NCBI GenBank assembly: GCA_963662665.2
Contig: CAXXJS010000050.1
Coordinates: 26,259 to 90,258, forward strand
DNA: 64,000 nt
Reading direction: 5' to 3'
Source of the DNA: Candidatus Latescibacterota bacterium
Lineage (GTDB): Bacteria; Latescibacterota; UBA2968; GCA-2709665
A program made the translations under genes and the position numbers. This document shows, in pieces, positions 17,456-61,871 of this stretch (its first letter is position 1; each line of letters begins with the position of its first letter). The notes under the pieces are model-generated. The model was given only the letters and a program-made list of their open reading frames with translations. It made no database searches and was not told the origin of the DNA.

Positions 17456-17574
17456 TTATAAAATTAATATTTAGTCGCAGATTCATCCGGCGACGCCGTC
17501 CGGTTGGGCTTTTTCAACGGGCTGTTTACATCGAGAAAGCAAGATTGTGACATTCCCAAAGCGCCAAAATATAC

Positions 17575-29331: not shown

Positions 29332-29506
29332 GACGTTCTCCCGGATTTTCCTTCTGGATTCCGGTCTGCGAATTCAATATCTTGGAGCTGGGACCTGCGC
29401 CGACCGTTTGACAATCCTTCGAAGAGCTCAGGACAAGGCTAAGGGACCGCGGGCAAGGGTCACGAACCGGGTACGGCACCGTTGAATGTCACACGTGAGT
29501 GACAGA

Positions 29507-30220
29507 ATGAATCTATTGCGAAAATGCGGAGCGGAATTCCTGGGCGCGTTCGCCATCGTGCTGGGCGGTTGCGGCGCCGTTGCCGTCAACCAGATCAGCG
29601 GCGGGGCAGTCTCTCACGTGGGTATTGCCACGTCGTTCGGGCTCATTGTGATGACGATGGTTTACGCCACCGGCCACATCTCCGGGGCGCACTTCAATCC
29701 CGCCGTTACGATCGCCTTCTCCTTTACGCGACACTTTCCCAAACGGGAGATCGCGCCGTACATTGCCGCCCAATGCATGGGCGCCGTCCTGGCCAGCTGC
29801 ATCCACCTCGTCACCCTGTCTCCCGTCCTGAATGCCAGCCTTCCCGGACAGGAACTCGATCTGGGTGTCACCCAGCCTCTGGACGGCGCGTGGACCACGG
29901 CCTTCGTATGGGAGTTCCTGCTCGCCTTCCTGCTGATGGTTGTAATTATGGCGGTTGCCACGGACTACCGCGCTACAGGTCAGGCCGCCGGCCTTGCGAT
30001 CGGCGGCACGATCTGGTTCGAAGCCATGTTCGCCGGCCCCGTTTGCGGGGCATCCATGAATCCCGCTCGCAGCCTGGGCCCGGCCCTTGTTTCCGGCAAC
30101 TGGCTGCATTTTTCAGCCTATGCGGCGGGTCCTGTGCTTGGCGCGTTTGCCGGCGCGCTTTACTACGAATTTATCAGGTGCCATCGGGACGGGGGGGCGG
30201 AAGTCAAGGGCTGCTGCTAA
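29507..30220 (+). CDS. MIP/aquaporin family channel (NIP-like)
   Basis: Two NPA boxes (SGAHFNPAVT, GASMNPARS) and six TM segments. ATG 29486 is an alternative start. Confidence 0.85.
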   Translation: MNLLRKCGAEFLGAFAIVLGGCGAVAVNQISGGAVSHVGIATSFGLIVMTMVYATGHISGAHFNPAVTIAFSFTRHFPKREIAPYIAAQCMGAVLASCIHLVTLSPVLNASLPGQELDLGVTQPLDGAWTTAFVWEFLLAFLLMVVIMAVATDYRATGQAAGLAIGGTIWFEAMFAGPVCGASMNPARSLGPALVSGNWLHFSAYAAGPVLGAFAGALYYEFIRCHRDGGAEVKGCC

Positions 30221-30233
30221 CCTTGATTCGCAA

Positions 30234-30989
30234 GTGCGCCGTGAAAAGGCGCGGAACTTCAGTGGGTGAGAGTCCCACCCGACAGATGTTGCCACAGTCG
30301 GAAGCAATCGGAGCGGAGACGTAGGTAACGACATCTCCGAAGCCTCCGGTGTAGAGGGTCGCCAGGCGACTCGGCGAGTATGTGGGCTGAAACGTGAGTA
30401 AACGCTGAGCAGGCCTCGAAAAGGGTAATGCGGGAGCCGACCCGGCTTGCGAACGGGGAAGGCCGCCGTCGTTGGGGAAGCAGGCAACGAGAGCACCCAA
30501 CGGTCCCGCCGGGGTAATGGCGGAGGCACGCATACAAGGAGATCCGACGCAACACGGGAAGCCCCAGCGGTGGTGGAGAGCCACCAACCGGAAGCCCGTG
30601 AGGGCCAGGCCGGGCCGTATGGGGTGGCGGACAGGCTCGTAGTACCTGTGATGCCGGGTAACGCCGGCGGAGGAAAGGGGCCTGACTTCGGATGTGCTTG
30701 TGAAGGGGACAACTGTCGGGAGAGTGGCGCAAGCCTATAACCTCCTCCAGAATAAGACGAGGCGACTCCAGATCAAGCTAAGGTTTCAGGTGAAGCTGTC
30801 CGGGCAGATCGGGCAGTGTGTACCTGAAGGCGATGTCCGTCGGAGAGCCGGATGCGGTAACTCCGCACGTCCGGTTCGACGAGCGGGATGTGGAAACGGA
30901 GCAGGGAGGGGCTATTGAGGCACCGCCAGACGAAAGGGGCGGGAACAGACAGGCCACTCCTAAACCACCGCGCCACATCTCGACTCTAC
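30234..30989 (+). mobile_element. ORF-less group II intron (756 nt)
   Basis: 5' GUGCG; near-consensus domain V at 30845-30877; DVI helix with a bulged A at 30983, 7 nt from the ...UAC 3' end; EBS1 UUGCGA (30447-30452) is complementary to the 5' exon UCGCAA (30228-30233); an intron-free paralogous site lies at 54941-55140. Confidence 0.8.
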
Positions 30990-31172
30990 TTCTTCGGGGA
31001 AGTAAAACCGAATATTTGCAAGTAGATAAAGGCGATTTAACTTCTGATTACCAGGATACACCAGGTCACTGGACGTGGACTGAAAAAACGTCCTTTTTGA
31101 CGACCGTTACGGCCAGCTTCAAGGGTTTTCGTCGCGTTGCCGAGTTGCTGTTTTTTTCACATTGAGGCTAAT
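30990..31172 (+). repeat. 200-nt repeat, copy 1 (3' part; the 5' 17 nt are 30217-30233, split by the intron)
   Basis: About 91% identical and gap-free against 54941-55140 once 30234-30989 is removed. Confidence 0.9.
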
Positions 31173-31455
31173 GCCTGCCTGTGCGTCACTCGATCCTGAC
31201 AGCCCGTTGAAAAAGTCCATCCGGTCTGCGTCCGGCCCTTGCGGCCGAATGACTGAGTTGCGCCCCCTCCCCGAATCCCCGATTCGACGCGGTCGCGCGC
31301 CTTGTCTTCGGCCACAATGACTCGGCCTCGCCTGCAGAGCGACTCTTTCAACGGACTGCTAAGTGAAACCTGCCGGCAAACCCACTTTTCGCCCCGGAAC
31401 CCGTCCTTTGAAAGCGCAGCCTGCCGTAGTCTGCCTCTCTTTGCTGTGCGCCGGT

Positions 31456-54041: not shown

Positions 54042-54425
54042 CTACCAGATGGTCTGTGAATAGAACGCCTGGATTATTGAATTGGAGGTGACGATGGGGC
54101 AGGCGTTCAGGCTGGCGGTTGCGACAATGATCCGATCGGCAGGGTCGCGATGGTCCCAGTCGAGTTCGAGGCTTTTGATCCAGGTCCGCGTGCATACGGG
54201 CAGGATATCGATACGGTCGACTTGCTCCAGTTTATCCGTGAATTCCTGAATCGAAACCGGAATTAGTAGCTGTTCCTTCTTGACTTTAATACCGATTTCC
54301 CATATCGATATGTCGCTCAGGGCAATCCTGTCGTAGTCGGAGATCGCCTGTTCGGCAGCCTGAGACAGCCGATCCGGATCCAGTGTCCAGAACACAAGGG
54401 CCGACGTGTCCAACAGGACCATCAC
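54042..54425 (-). CDS. vapC: type II toxin VapC (PIN domain)
   Basis: MVLLDTSALV...DRIIVATA carries the acidic PIN residues. There is a 4-nt overlap with the upstream antitoxin gene. Confidence 0.9.
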   Translation of the reverse strand: MMVLLDTSALVFWTLDPDRLSQAAEQAISDYDRIALSDISIWEIGIKVKKEQLLIPVSIQEFTDKLEQVDRIDILPVCTRTWIKSLELDWDHRDPADRIIVATASLNACPIVTSNSIIQAFYSQTIW

Positions 54426-54652
54426 AGGTCAGTCCATTCATCGGTGGTTGGCAAATTGACGTCTTCGCGGTAGATCGCGCCCCCCTGAATGGCGCCGAAC
54501 ACCTCTTCTACGGTCTTTTTTGGTTCAATAGGCTGAATGCGCAAAACCGGCCGCCTTCGATCCGTGACAATCAGTTCTTCGCCGGTTTTCTCAAGCTCGC
54601 GAAAGACTCGTAGCATATTGGCTTTCAGCTTGCTCTTCGAAATGGATTGCAT
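54422..54652 (-). CDS. vapB: type II antitoxin (Phd/YefM-like) paired with VapC
   Basis: MQSISKSKLKANMLRVFRELEKTGEELIVTDRRRPVLRIQPI is the prevent-host-death type. ATG at 54652. Confidence 0.8.
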   Translation of the reverse strand: MQSISKSKLKANMLRVFRELEKTGEELIVTDRRRPVLRIQPIEPKKTVEEVFGAIQGGAIYREDVNLPTTDEWTDL

Positions 54653-54674
54653 GCGTTCTCCCAGGCTGAATAAG

Positions 54675-54940: not shown

Positions 54941-55140
54941 CTAACCTTGATTAGTAATTCTTCGGGGAAGTAAAACCGAATATATGCAAGTAGATAAAGG
55001 CGATTTGACTTCGGATTACCAGGATACACCAGGTCACTGGACGTGAATTGAAAAAACGTCCTTTTTGACGACCGTTACGCCCCGTTTCAGGGGTTTTCGT
55101 CGCGTCGCCTTGTTGCTGTTTTTTTCGAATTGGGGCTAAT
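54941..55140 (+). repeat. 200-nt repeat, copy 2 (intron-free)
   Basis: Colinear with 30217-30233 plus 30990-31172. Contains hairpin plus U-tract structures: GGACGT-11 nt-ACGTCC-TTTTT, and CCCC-GTTTCA-GGGG-TTTT. Confidence 0.9.
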
Positions 55141-55321
55141 CGCGCAGCCGGAACTTGATTTCGTCTACAGAAGCCGTCTCGAGGAACGATTCCAGTTCTT
55201 TCTTCAGGTTTTCCTTCGATTCGGCTATCGTGTTCCCCTGGCTCGCGATATCCAACTCTGGACAGAGCGCGACGTACCCTTCGCCGACTCGCTCAATAAA
55301 TGCCGTCAACTGCCTTGCCAT
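55136..55321 (-). CDS. HicB-like antitoxin-fold small protein (UPF0150/DUF1902-like), no HicA partner
   Basis: MARQLTAFIERVGEGYVALCPELDIASQGNTIAESKENLKKELESFLE. It is a paralog of 55722-55904. Confidence 0.7.
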   Translation of the reverse strand: MARQLTAFIERVGEGYVALCPELDIASQGNTIAESKENLKKELESFLETASVDEIKFRLRD

Positions 55322-55358
55322 CACCAACTCCGATCGGTCGAAACCGATTCTCCAACAC

Positions 55359-55653: not shown

Positions 55654-55709
55654 TGTCCTGCCTATCCTGCCTGTGGGTACGCACGCAGACAGGTGCAACC
55701 ATGTTCCCC
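55654..55709 (+). repeat. short interspersed repeat, long form with internal hairpin
   Basis: TGTCCTGCCTATCCTGCCTGTGGGTACGCACGCAGACAGGTGCAACCATGTTCCCC. Confidence 0.75.
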
Positions 55710-55721
55710 TATTTCAATTCT

Positions 55722-56857: not shown

Positions 56858-56922
56858 TATCCTGCCTATCCTGCCTGCCTGTGCGTGTGGCACGCACGCA
56901 GACAGGTCTATCCATGTTCCCC
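56858..56922 (+). repeat. short interspersed repeat, long form with internal hairpin
   Basis: TTATCCTGCCTATCCTGCCTGCCTGTGCGTGTGGCACGCACGCAGACAGGTCTATCCATGTTCCCC. Confidence 0.75.
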
Positions 56923-56947
56923 TGCATCAATCCTCGATGGTCTTTTG

Positions 56948-59540: not shown

Positions 59541-61871
59541 ATGCCTGTCAGCAAATCAGTAGGCGCGAGAATCAAGCGCAGGGAAGATCCCCGGCTGATT
59601 CAGGGCCTTGCGCAGTACGTAGACGACATTCAAATGCCCGGAACGCTGCACGTGGCCGTCCTGCGCAGTCCGTACGGACACGCGCACATCCGGAGCATCG
59701 ACACCGCCGCCGCTGCGGATCACCCAGGGGTAGTCGCCGTGGTGACCGGCGACGATCTCAAAGATAATATCGGCACCATTCCATGCGCCACCACCGACCC
59801 CGAAGCTTTTCCCGGCATCCAGGTTCCGGAGCATCCGGTCCTGGCCCATGGCAAAGTGCGGTTCGTCGGGGAACCGGTTGCGGCCGTTGTGGCCGACAGT
59901 CCCTACACCGCCAGTGACGCGGCCGAACTCATCGAGGTCGACTACGACCCGCTCGACGCCGTCAACTCCGCGGAGTCCGCGCTGAGTGAAGGCGCACCCA
60001 TTCTGCACGAACAGTTCGGCAGCAACCAGGCCTTCACCTGGGCTATTGCCGGCGGCGACATCGACGATGCATTCGCCCAGGCCGACCGCGTGGTCAAACA
60101 GCGTTTCGACCACCAGCGCCTGGTGCCCAATCCGCTGGAAACCCGCGGCGTGGTCGCACGGTTTGAGCCCGGCCGCGGCAAACTCACGGTCTGGTCCTCT
60201 ACCCAGATCCCGCATCTGCTCAAGACCCAGTTGTCGGTGATTCTCAACCGGCCGGAGCAACTCGTCCAGGTCATCGCCCCTGAAGTGGGCGGCGGGTTCG
60301 GCTGCAAACTGAACGTGTACGCCGAGGAAGCCCTGGTCGGTCACCTCGCGATCCAGCTAAAAAAGCCGGTCAAGTGGATCGAGAGCAGGCGGGAGAACTT
60401 CCTTCACACGATCCACGGCCGCGACCAGGTAGGCGACGTGGAGATCCCCGTAAAAAACGACGGGACCATCCTGGGTCTCAAATACTCCGTGCAGGCCGAC
60501 GTGGGCGCCTATTATCAGTTGCTCACACCGGCAATTCCAACCCTCACGGGATTGATGCTCTGCGGCTGTTACAAGTTCCAGAACGTCTCCATGGAACTTA
60601 CCGCCGCGTTTACCAACAAAATGTCCACCGATGCCTACCGGGGGGCGGGAAGGCCGGAGGCCACTTACCTCATCGAACGCATGCTGGACTGCGTGGCCTT
60701 CGATCTGGACATGGATCCCCTGGAGGTCCGCCGCAGGAACTTTATCGGCAAGGACGAATTCCCCTTCACCACCGGTACGGCCGTTGCGTACGACAGCGGC
60801 GACTACGACATTGCACTGAACAAGGCGCTCAGGAAGATCGATTACGAGGGATTCCGCAAGGAGCAGGCGGAAGCCCGCGAACAGGGCCGGTACCTGGGGC
60901 TGGGCTTCTCAACCTACGTTGAAATCTGCGGGATGGGCCCCTCGGCGGCCATGCCGGCAGGCGGCTGGGAAAGCGGCACCGTGCGCGTGGACCCCACGGG
61001 CACGGTCACCGTTCTCACCGGCGTCTCGCCCCACGGCCAGGGCCAGGAAACCACGTTTGCGCAACTCATCGCCGACGGCCTTGGGGTGGACATCGACGAC
61101 GTGCGGATCATCCACGGCGATACCGAAGCCGTGCAATACGGCATCGGGACGTTCGGCTCCCGCGCGACCGCGGTGGGCGGCACGGCCATGGTCATGGCCA
61201 TGGAAAAGGTTAAGGAAAAAGCCGTCAATATCGCCGCGCATCTCCTGGAGAGCAATCCGCATGACATCGTCCTCGAAGACGGAAAATACGGCGTAAAGGG
61301 CTCGCCCGACCAGGGCGTGACCCTGATGGAAATATCCATGGCCGCCCACGGGGGCGTGAACCTGCCGCCGGATACCGAGCCGGGTATGGCTGCCACACAC
61401 TTCTTCGAACCCTCCAACTTCACGTACCCGTTCGGCACCCATATCGCCATCGTGGAAGTGGACGCGGATACCGGCGAAGTGGACATCCTGCGCTATATCG
61501 CCGTTGACGACTGCGGCAATATCATCAACCCGCTGATCGTCGAGGGTCAGATCCACGGGGGCATCGCGCAGGGCCTGGGCCAGGCGCTCTACGAAGAGGC
61601 CATCTACGACGAGAGCGGCCAGATGCTCACCGGCTCGTTCATGGACTACGCCCTGCCAAAGGCGCACAACTTCCCCCGCTTCGAACTGGACAACACGGTC
61701 ACGCCCTCTCCTGTGAACCCCATGGGCGTCAAGGGCGTGGGTGAGGCGGGCACCATCGGCTCAACGCCGTCCATTGTGAATGCGGTGGTCGACGCGCTCA
61801 AGCCATTCGGCGTACGTCATATCGATATGCCGCTGCGTCCTGAAAAACTCTGGAAGCTGATGCAGGGGTAG
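59541..61871 (+). CDS. coxL: molybdopterin-binding large subunit, form II CoxL-like (xanthine dehydrogenase family)
   Basis: The active-site loop reads TDAYRGAGRPEA (AYRGAGR, the form II signature), not the form I AYXCSFR. Confidence 0.9.
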   Translation: MPVSKSVGARIKRREDPRLIQGLAQYVDDIQMPGTLHVAVLRSPYGHAHIRSIDTAAAADHPGVVAVVTGDDLKDNIGTIPCATTDPEAFPGIQVPEHPVLAHGKVRFVGEPVAAVVADSPYTASDAAELIEVDYDPLDAVNSAESALSEGAPILHEQFGSNQAFTWAIAGGDIDDAFAQADRVVKQRFDHQRLVPNPLETRGVVARFEPGRGKLTVWSSTQIPHLLKTQLSVILNRPEQLVQVIAPEVGGGFGCKLNVYAEEALVGHLAIQLKKPVKWIESRRENFLHTIHGRDQVGDVEIPVKNDGTILGLKYSVQADVGAYYQLLTPAIPTLTGLMLCGCYKFQNVSMELTAAFTNKMSTDAYRGAGRPEATYLIERMLDCVAFDLDMDPLEVRRRNFIGKDEFPFTTGTAVAYDSGDYDIALNKALRKIDYEGFRKEQAEAREQGRYLGLGFSTYVEICGMGPSAAMPAGGWESGTVRVDPTGTVTVLTGVSPHGQGQETTFAQLIADGLGVDIDDVRIIHGDTEAVQYGIGTFGSRATAVGGTAMVMAMEKVKEKAVNIAAHLLESNPHDIVLEDGKYGVKGSPDQGVTLMEISMAAHGGVNLPPDTEPGMAATHFFEPSNFTYPFGTHIAIVEVDADTGEVDILRYIAVDDCGNIINPLIVEGQIHGGIAQGLGQALYEEAIYDESGQMLTGSFMDYALPKAHNFPRFELDNTVTPSPVNPMGVKGVGEAGTIGSTPSIVNAVVDALKPFGVRHIDMPLRPEKLWKLMQG

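Follow-up and report, generated by a model that had tools for sequence, protein, structure and literature searches.

The window analysed here is a stretch of 64,000 nucleotides (nt) from a Candidatus Latescibacterota bacterium (contig CAXXJS010000050.1, positions 26,259 to 90,258 of the forward strand), and positions 30234-30989 of its plus strand are occupied by a genuine, complete group II intron ribozyme which is structurally intact and carries no open reading frame (ORF) for a reverse transcriptase (RT). The intron is located 13 nt downstream of the stop codon of an aquaporin gene on the same strand, as a first-pass annotation made from the letters alone had placed it, and it interrupts a repeat of about 200 nt which we interpret as resembling a miniature inverted-repeat transposable element (MITE). 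An empty copy of this repeat is found elsewhere in the window. The central proposal of the first-pass annotation, an ORF-less group II intron with its filled and empty sites on one contig, is backed by covariance models, by the boundaries and by covariation in the fold and in the exon-binding sites (EBS). We consider it probable that the element is a non-autonomous, class F/g3-like intron which was derived by deletion, was mobilised in trans into the MITE-like repeat and may be spliced from the 3' untranslated region (UTR) of the aquaporin transcript. The intron and its domains (DI to DVI) are listed below, where IEP stands for intron-encoded protein.

30234-30989 (+): ORF-less group II intron, 756 nt; matches to RF02003 and RF00029, ends kept in 27 relatives, no RT domain
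30239-30557 (+): DI, 319 nt, from the 14-copy consensus fold
30288-30293 (+): alpha, GUUGCC, pairing with alpha' at 30483-30488; pseudoknot helix 96.3% paired, three of six pairs changed on both sides
30483-30488 (+): alpha', GGCAAC, at the tip of an extra DId3 stem-loop, from alpha-alpha' covariation
30558-30628 (+): DII, from the consensus fold, with compensatory changes
30632-30684 (+): DIII, from the consensus fold
30686-30842 (+): DIV, 157 nt, with a basal stem, a DIVa-like hairpin at 30719-30745 and a decayed ORF remnant, from alignment to the IEP-encoding relatives L002 and L007
30845-30877 (+): DV, with AGC triad, AC bulge and the 5-nt loop UAACU; RF00029 match, helix 99.5% paired
30881-30986 (+): DVI, 106 nt, branched, with the bulged branch-point A30983; RF00029 match and consensus fold

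Boundaries and fold of the ribozyme

The segment opens with GUGCG (30234-30238), as had been read earlier, and closes with CUCUAC at 30989, which fits the GUGYG/AY termini. The model RF02003 (group-II-D1D4-4) matches 30260-30397 with 89.7 bits (E=2e-18), and RF00029, which represents DV and DVI, matches 30843-30989 with 35.7 bits (E=5e-05 in a local search and 0.0024 over the whole window) and stops exactly on the predicted last base of the 3' splice site, 30989. The Rfam gathering score of the latter model is 40 and the match falls just under it mainly because the model must skip about 80 nt inside the long DVI. Rfam covariance models had been named beforehand as a check on the intron; they do recover DV and DVI, though under the gathering score, and the match in DI is strong. 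Furthermore, both boundaries were observed to be identical in 27 complete relatives at unrelated sites (GUGCGCCGUG... and ...CGACUCYAC), and the alternative that related genomes carry this segment as a non-intron element with other boundaries did not hold.

No Pfam match was obtained for the ORFs inside 30234-30989, in line with the earlier statement that no internal frame encodes an RT or maturase. No second intron or intron fragment was found within the 64-kb window. The tetrapeptide YVDD at 59616 was rejected as an RT motif, since the only sizeable YxDD ORF in the window is a molybdopterin oxidoreductase, and a match to the thiamine pyrophosphate riboswitch at 30589-30693 (19.9 bits, E=0.43) was treated as noise because it is weak and overlaps DII and DIII.

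The consensus fold was computed from 14 ORF-less copies only and was then mapped to the window coordinates. It contains 198 pairs, of which 69 show compensatory double changes. When the alpha-alpha' pseudoknot is included there are 201 pairs with 96.6% of the cells paired, compared to 34-46% if the partners are slid by 1-3 columns. Seventy-two of these pairs are altered on both sides vs 13-23 in the slid controls, and the observed values were matched by none of 500 shuffles.

The DV sequence at 30845-30877 (GAGCCGGAUGCGGUAACUCCGCACGUCCGGUUC), described before as near-consensus with the AGC triad and the AC bulge, aligns to the DV of RF00029, and DV is invariant in the relatives. The closure proposed for DVI was also found, with A30983 unpaired between the CUCG and CUC arms at a distance of 7 nt from the 3' end; its basal stem persists in 14 relatives, where two positions have changed on both sides. 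DVI consists of three helical segments and is about 55 nt longer than in Ni.ha.I1, an intron from a Nitrobacter hamburgensis plasmid, and the sequence of this expansion is conserved across phyla. The distal hairpin of DVI at 30923-30942 (CCGCC-AGACGAAAGG-GGCGG) has a near-invariant loop across phyla together with a stem that covaries, and it is deleted in the ORF-less relative L067. This hairpin may be a tertiary-contact or protein-binding module. DIV is not the short hairpin that had been described, as it has 157 nt and includes a decayed remnant of the IEP start region.

Exon recognition, class and target repeat

The exon-binding sites, their partners in the exons (intron-binding sites, IBS) and the neighbouring features are as follows (^ marks the insertion point here and below).

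30220-30233 (+): 5' exon, with IBS2 ACCUU at 30220-30224 and IBS1 UUCGCAA at 30227-30233, from complementarity to EBS2 and EBS1
30422-30426 (+): candidate EBS2, AGGGU, within AAA[AGGGU]AAU (an internal loop); partner of IBS2 at 30220-30224
30447-30453 (+): EBS1, UUGCGAA, in the loop of the hairpin 30436-30463; 7-bp complement of 30227-30233
30517 (+): EBS3, the A within GGGGUA[A]UGG; pairs with T30990
30990 (+): IBS3, T, the first base of the 3' exon; pairs with A30517
30217-31175 (+), that is 30217-30233 and 30990-31175: filled MITE-like repeat, about 200 nt, with the intron 17 nt inside its left inverted repeat
54941-55143 (+): empty copy of the MITE-like repeat; its site UUAGUAA^U has one mismatch and one G-U pair to EBS1
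29486-30220 (+): aquaporin (MIP family; PF00230, E=2.2e-50)

The EBS1-IBS1 pairing had been reported as 6 bp; the pairing is real and covaries over 23 insertions, but its length is 7 bp. The identity of the EBS1 loop differs between relatives and each time it complements the 5' exon of that copy. Over 23 non-redundant insertions, 132 of the 161 positions were paired, compared to 65 ± 6.7 when the exons are permuted (0 of 5000 permutations). EBS3 was located by a column-by-column covariation screen against the flanking exon bases, and in 21 of the 23 insertions its column is paired with the base that opens the 3' exon, where 10.1 ± 2.1 are expected (0 of 5000). The assignment of EBS2 to 30422-30426 is of moderate strength. 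In many copies the loop is complementary to exon positions -14 to -10 and the permutation test gave 6 of 5000, yet a control loop scored 105 of 5000, which probably reflects related targets among related copies. A scan for 6-mer complementarity found nothing for EBS2. The loop of the second DId3 hairpin was rejected as EBS2, being identical in copies with different targets, and proved to be alpha'.

The EBS3-IBS3 pairing between A30517 and T30990 indicates an IIB-type arrangement and not the delta-delta' arrangement of IIA. The intron is best described as IIB-like and bacterial class F/g3-like. A blastn match of DI in the Nitrobacter hamburgensis plasmid falls inside Ni.ha.I1 (CP000320 75444-77354), which is listed as 'g3, Bacterial F' in Table S2 of Toro & Martinez-Abarca 2013 (PMC3552965). 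In an end-to-end comparison with the IEP of Ni.ha.I1, the 441-aa IEP of the full-length sister L007, in which RVT_1 and GIIM domains are present and an endonuclease domain is absent, shows 49% identity. Peculiarities of IIE and IIF introns are a DV loop of 5 nt and an alpha' at the tip of the DId3 stem-loop, and a long structured D6 is a tendency of IIF (PMC3753933). All three are present in the window intron, where the DV loop is UAACU vs [G/C]A[A/G]AU in the relatives. Ni.ha.I1 (plasmid 1) shares about 75% identity in DI, the same ends, DV and the basal stem of DVI with the window intron, and the 5-nt DV loop, the alpha' in the DId3 hairpin and the insertion in a mobile element are likewise features of Ni.ha.I1 and class IIF (Nagy et al. 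2013, PMC3753933). In contrast to the window intron, with no ORF and a branched DVI of 106 nt, Ni.ha.I1 encodes an IEP (1,911 nt) and its DVI is about 52 nt; as this named class member has a short DVI, the long form is a tendency and no rule. We keep the label at 'class F/g3-like' because the coherence of class F is disputed (Toro & Martinez-Abarca, PMC3552965) and because the assignment draws on ribozyme features and on similarity to Ni.ha.I1 in DI and, as the window element has no IEP of its own, in the IEP of a sister.

The TAA stop codon of the aquaporin gene (30218-30220) lies in the terminal TTAACC of the repeat. The repeat unit begins with TTAACCTTGATTCG and ends with CGAATTGGGGTTAA, and 11 of the 14 terminal bases form inverted repeats. 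Units sometimes abut via a shared TTAA and have an internal terminator-like hairpin followed by Us. The repeat has no Rfam match, and we interpret its sequence features as those of a MITE-like element. Deletion of 30234-30989 does yield the gapless alignment to 54941-55140 that had been claimed (200 nt, 91.5% identity); this segment is, however, a further copy of the multi-copy repeat and not simply an uninterrupted paralog.

The left end of the repeat at the target reads ACCTTGATTCGCAA^TTC, with …TTAGTAA^TTC as the variant at the empty site. The consensus of the repeat family at the insertion site, ACCTTGATTCG[C/T]AA^T, fits EBS2, EBS1 (if G-U pairs are allowed) and EBS3, and the intron therefore appears to be adapted to the repeat. 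For the empty copy in the window, the mismatched IBS1 is a sufficient reason for its being unoccupied. The 26 nt directly 3' of the insertion point were observed at 10 places in the metagenome assembly LXNJ01 (L121-L130), and BLAST gave about 18 full or partial repeat copies in ten LXNJ01 contigs. These loci contain no sequence of the intron, and the 10 pattern-matched sites and the further BLAST copies that align across the junction are all empty. Bacterial group II introns usually home into other mobile elements, and their targets include the inverted repeats of such elements (PMC5894124). RmInt1 and RmInt2 of Sinorhizobium meliloti, for example, belong to an endonuclease-less lineage that homes into mobile elements, with the inverted repeats of ISRm17 serving as the targets of RmInt2 (PMC5894124). 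These introns differ from the window intron in being of class D/IIB3 and in containing an ORF, and the window family gave few Sinorhizobium matches.

The same data bear on the idea that the element is no retroelement but either a domesticated, protein-free ribozyme of the HYER type or a regulator that acts in cis on the aquaporin mRNA. The element lacks an ORF, is conserved in structure and lies in a 3' UTR, HYERs are also compact, multi-copy, group II-derived RNAs without an ORF, and group II ribozymes have been reported to hydrolyse DNA and to reverse-splice without protein (PMC11754743). However, HYERs are hydrolytic endonucleases of class IIC which lack EBS2 and recognise about 7 bp (PMC11754743), whereas the window element is IIB-like, with EBS1, EBS2 and EBS3, a DI of 319 nt and a branch-point DVI. 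Its relatives occupy unrelated, EBS-matched sites, which is the behaviour of a retroelement, and the insertion site lies inside a mobile repeat and is not conserved beside aquaporin genes. We consider domestication extremely improbable and treat the element as an intron of the retroelement type.

Several further features were noticed in the neighbourhood. The filled MITE-like copy is followed directly by a second repeat, where 31189-31232 is an inverted match to 17492-17535 (44 nt, 82% complementary), 13.6 kb upstream, and 31199-31358 is 91% identical over 160 nt to positions 1978-2138 of the LXNJ01 contig L123. The empty copy is flanked on one side (54042-54655, minus strand) by a PIN-domain toxin (PF01850, E=1.5e-17) with a weak match to a Phd/YefM-like antitoxin (25.3 bits, below the Pfam cut-off), and on the other side by an ORF of 63 aa (55136-55327, minus strand) with no Pfam match that is antitoxin-like by eye only. 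A direct repeat pair was found at 55676-55721 and 56889-56934 (46 nt, 83% identity, 1,213 nt apart). No promoters or terminators were found in a consensus scan around the locus. In 8-kb windows the plus strand shows a negative GC skew throughout (-0.02 to -0.09), except at the start (+0.002). If the usual skew rule holds, the plus strand and hence the intron would be on the lagging strand, a point of little weight as it concerns one insertion and comes from the skew; a lagging-strand bias has been reported for class F introns (PMC8919778).

Relatives and loss of the open reading frame

Relatives of the intron were collected from plasmids and from genomes. The window sequence itself did not appear in the collections searched, and exact look-ups of the aquaporin protein (with two choices of start) and of a 1,066-aa ORF gave no match. 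A blastn search of plasmids gave about 100 records with a homologous DI. These include an IEP-encoding intron in Planctomyces sp. SH-PL62 and an ORF-less copy of 725 nt on a Bradyrhizobium plasmid, which has exactly the same ends and unrelated flanks. The genome scan covered one genome per species and used the conserved junction from DV to DVI, with an exact DV match needed. It returned at least 117 stretches, nearly all from soil metagenome-assembled genomes (MAGs). Acidobacteriota (Bryobacterales, Terriglobia), Planctomycetota, Gemmatimonadota (Longimicrobiales), Latescibacterota and Alphaproteobacteria are represented among the stretches listed, and the nearest relatives among the matches listed are all from Candidatus Latescibacterota. 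The ORF-less copies L029, L118 and L067 are 92%, 89% and 81% identical to the window intron over the full length. The full-length copies L007, L104, L115 and L031 (1,979 nt), from another Latescibacterota MAG (OZ244744.1), match it in blastn with 87-90% identity over intron positions 1-450 and 93-95% over DV-DVI, and a global alignment of L007 gave 88-92% over DI-DIII. They have the same architecture and the same DVI expansion as the window intron, but their RVT_1+GIIM ORF of 441 aa is intact and they occupy another target site (…AUCCAUG^U).

For a census of ORF-less copies, each DV match in the fetched genome loci was anchored and DI was located by profile. The distance from DI start to DV start was 349-693 nt in the ORF-less copies and 1,510-1,850 nt in the ORF-sized ones. 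Among the matches listed, 71 copies were classified (38 ORF-less, 32 ORF-sized and 1 intermediate) and 49 further copies were unclassifiable, mostly where the locus ended; single genomes add several copies to these numbers, with nine from one Bryobacterales MAG. Of the copies in this family that could be classified, about half are thus ORF-less. In the ribozyme-core tree the ORF-less copies were observed in at least five separate clades, each beside full-length relatives of the same phylum, which suggests that the ORF was lost independently at least five times.

This frequency does not look like the rarity described in a 2015 review, where bacterial ORF-less introns are held to be rare, short-lived and mostly immobile (PMC4424553), and the rarity stated in the first-pass annotation was overstated as well. 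Expansions of ORF-less introns in some genomes were already noted in a 2022 survey (PMC8919778). We found no description of ORF-less derivatives in class F or in the phyla found here in the literature searched.

Two unusual arrangements were seen among the relatives. In the Bryobacterales MAG OZ252029.1, three ORF-less introns of about 792 nt are arranged head-to-tail without spacers (L080 5029-7401, minus strand; ...CGACUCCAC^GUGCGCC...), and only the first of them is preceded by an exon that matches EBS1 (UUUCUCA with UGAGAAA). The single matching exon makes this array look like a tandem duplication or an effect of assembly and not like repeated homing. This genome has at least nine ORF-less copies and at least one full-length copy. 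In addition, two copies of 2,758 nt in the Acidobacteriota MAG CAWBIY (L020 4187-6944 and L089 2234-4991) are outliers in the ribozyme tree, and inside them the profile locates the start of a DI fewer than 800 nt before DV, which suggests a compound or nested arrangement with an intron within or beside an intron.

The 5' part of DIV in the window intron aligns to the IEP start-codon region of the full-length relatives (GGGAGAGUGGCGCAAGCCUAUAACCUCC vs GGGAGAUUGGUAUGAGCCUAAGACCUCC). In the window copy the AUG is lost and a stop codon follows soon after, and the similarity to the full-length copies fades beyond. The window intron derives from an RT/maturase-encoding intron by deletion of nearly the whole DIV ORF. 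The deletion spared the stem of DIV and, with it, the former start-codon hairpin. In the basal stem all seven pairs show changes on both sides, and the start-codon hairpin is near-invariant in every ORF-less lineage. DIVa is the IEP-binding site of other group II introns (PMC2882425), and by analogy the hairpin would have been kept as expected if the RNA is still bound by a maturase supplied in trans.

The DIV remnant is common, nearly base for base, to the window intron, L029, L118 and L067, and in the core tree these four copies form one clade that is sister to the full-length copies L007, L104, L115 and L031. A common remnant in a single clade points to one loss of the ORF, before the four copies separated. 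It is also the evidence against a history in which a full-length intron inserted beside the aquaporin gene and its ORF was deleted afterwards, so that no mobilisation in trans is needed. ORF deletions are frequent enough in the family for such an event, with the five or more independent cases described above. However, the remnant is near-identical in copies located at other sites in other genomes, and it is only about 67% identical or unalignable to the full-length sister, compared to 89-95% for the core; a remnant that is both common and already decayed implies that the deletion predates the insertion in the window. Loss in place is therefore very improbable, and the deletion is better placed in an ancestor of the four copies.

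Movement after the deletion is suggested by the exon-binding sites of the same clade. Its four copies are at unrelated sites in different genomes, and EBS1 reads UUGCGAA in the window intron, CAUGGAU in L029 and UGUCAGC in L118, each pairing 7/7 with its own exon, while EBS3 shifts accordingly. The target motif of L029 is that of the full-length copies. The simplest reading of these sequences is that the ORF-less RNA moved and was retargeted after the loss of its ORF.

Mobilisation in trans and the ORF-less lineages

The copy in the window would have arrived by reverse splicing, with the left inverted repeat of the MITE-like repeat as its target, and the cDNA would then have been synthesised in trans by the endonuclease-less RT/maturase of a related full-length intron, by analogy with the ORF-less introns of Thermosynechococcus. 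The intron would be co-transcribed with the aquaporin gene and removed from its 3' UTR by self-splicing, possibly aided by the same RT/maturase bound to the DIVa-like hairpin. Class F ribozymes self-splice in vitro without protein, by branching and hydrolysis (PMC3753933), and by analogy a protein-independent excision of the window intron is plausible.

The closest precedent is TeI3 of Thermosynechococcus elongatus, for which splicing and mobilisation in trans by 'driver' IEPs were shown experimentally (PMC2882425; also PMC8643678). The two systems are alike in a single deletion of the ORF in DIV with remnants of the ORF ends and retention of a DIVa-like region, in breakpoints that are common to copies at different sites, in diverged EBS families with good EBS/IBS fits, and in insertion sites that lie between genes and in mobile elements (Mohr et al. 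2010, PMC2882425). TeI3 introns rely on the IEP of related ORF-containing introns and the same dependence is presumed for the window intron. They differ in that TeI3 is of the IIB1/CL class with endonuclease-containing IEPs, whereas the window intron is class F/g3-like with an endonuclease-less sister IEP. Furthermore, TeI3 was studied in one cyanobacterial genome, whereas the window family belongs to uncultured soil phyla and the copies compared are from different genomes and known from sequence. The novelty claimed in the first-pass annotation was overstated, since the same situation had been described and experimentally tested in T. elongatus (PMC2882425), and the window intron is a clean further example of the already known non-autonomous bacterial group II introns.

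The ribozyme structure has stayed under selection since the loss of the ORF. Within the four-copy clade, variation affects 10% of the paired columns, compared to 26% of the unpaired core and 31% of the distal DIV. Five compensatory double changes were observed in this clade and two of them are private to the window copy, including a change of U:A to C30293:G30483 in the alpha-alpha' helix. Four of the 198 pairs are non-canonical in the window copy, equal to its closest sister.

Several observations weigh against a trans-mobilised and spliced intron at this locus. No RT or maturase gene was found within the 64-kb window. Among the matches listed, a single assembly has both ORF-less and full-length copies vs 18 with ORF-less copies only, a count which, as an exact DV match was required, is not evidence that full-length copies are absent. 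An appearance of retargeting could also arise if EBS segments were exchanged between copies by gene conversion. Finally, the window copy has five private changes at positions that are invariant in 13 other ORF-less copies; these include the alpha change, which is compensated, and a change after which the pair persists as G-U. Another is found in the DV loop, where C30861 replaces the A of the 13 other copies, and this might weaken a tertiary contact, as the DV loop usually makes the zeta-zeta' contact.

The lack of an RT gene in the window and the private substitutions, including the one in the DV loop, would also be expected if the window copy is a stranded fossil, that is, a real ORF-less intron which arrived as described and is now immobile and perhaps no longer splices, its helper being gone or its own mutations having disabled it. 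Such a state would further agree with there being only one filled repeat copy beside the empty one in the window, with the vacancy of all repeat copies examined at the insertion site in the related metagenome, and with the view of reviews that bacterial ORF-less derivatives are mostly immobile (PMC4424553). The fold, however, is as intact as in the sisters, two of the private changes are compensatory double substitutions, EBS1, EBS2 and EBS3 fit the flanks perfectly or nearly so, and the mismatched IBS1 alone explains the vacancy of the empty window copy. We regard the fossil state as possible but unlikely.

The 18 assemblies with ORF-less copies only also raise the possibility that such copies persist and spread in genomes without any cognate RT/maturase. 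We consider this doubtful. If true, it would mean mobilisation by non-cognate RTs, or protein-free reverse splicing followed by copying through the host.

For this locus, the analysis gives exact intron boundaries, domains, exon-binding sites, a target element, an evolutionary origin and a natural pair of filled and empty sites. The element itself is ordinary for a specialist, and the part worth following is the pattern at the level of the family, namely loss of the ORF, persistence and numerical parity. Compact, self-splicing class F ribozymes with a programmable recognition of 13 nt are of some biotechnological interest (PMC3753933, PMC11754743). The results suggest that a class F-like family is widespread in Latescibacterota, Acidobacteriota, Planctomycetota, Gemmatimonadota and Alphaproteobacteria and has lost its ORF repeatedly, and that the ORF-less lineages are structurally constrained, switch their target specificity and are about as numerous as the autonomous copies. 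This pattern is at odds with the view of ORF-less introns as rare and short-lived (PMC4424553), and it would extend the 'driver IEP' model of Thermosynechococcus to another intron class and to many phyla. Loss of the ORF followed by mobilisation in trans may be, as these observations suggest, a recurrent and successful strategy in soil bacteria and not a rare dead end.

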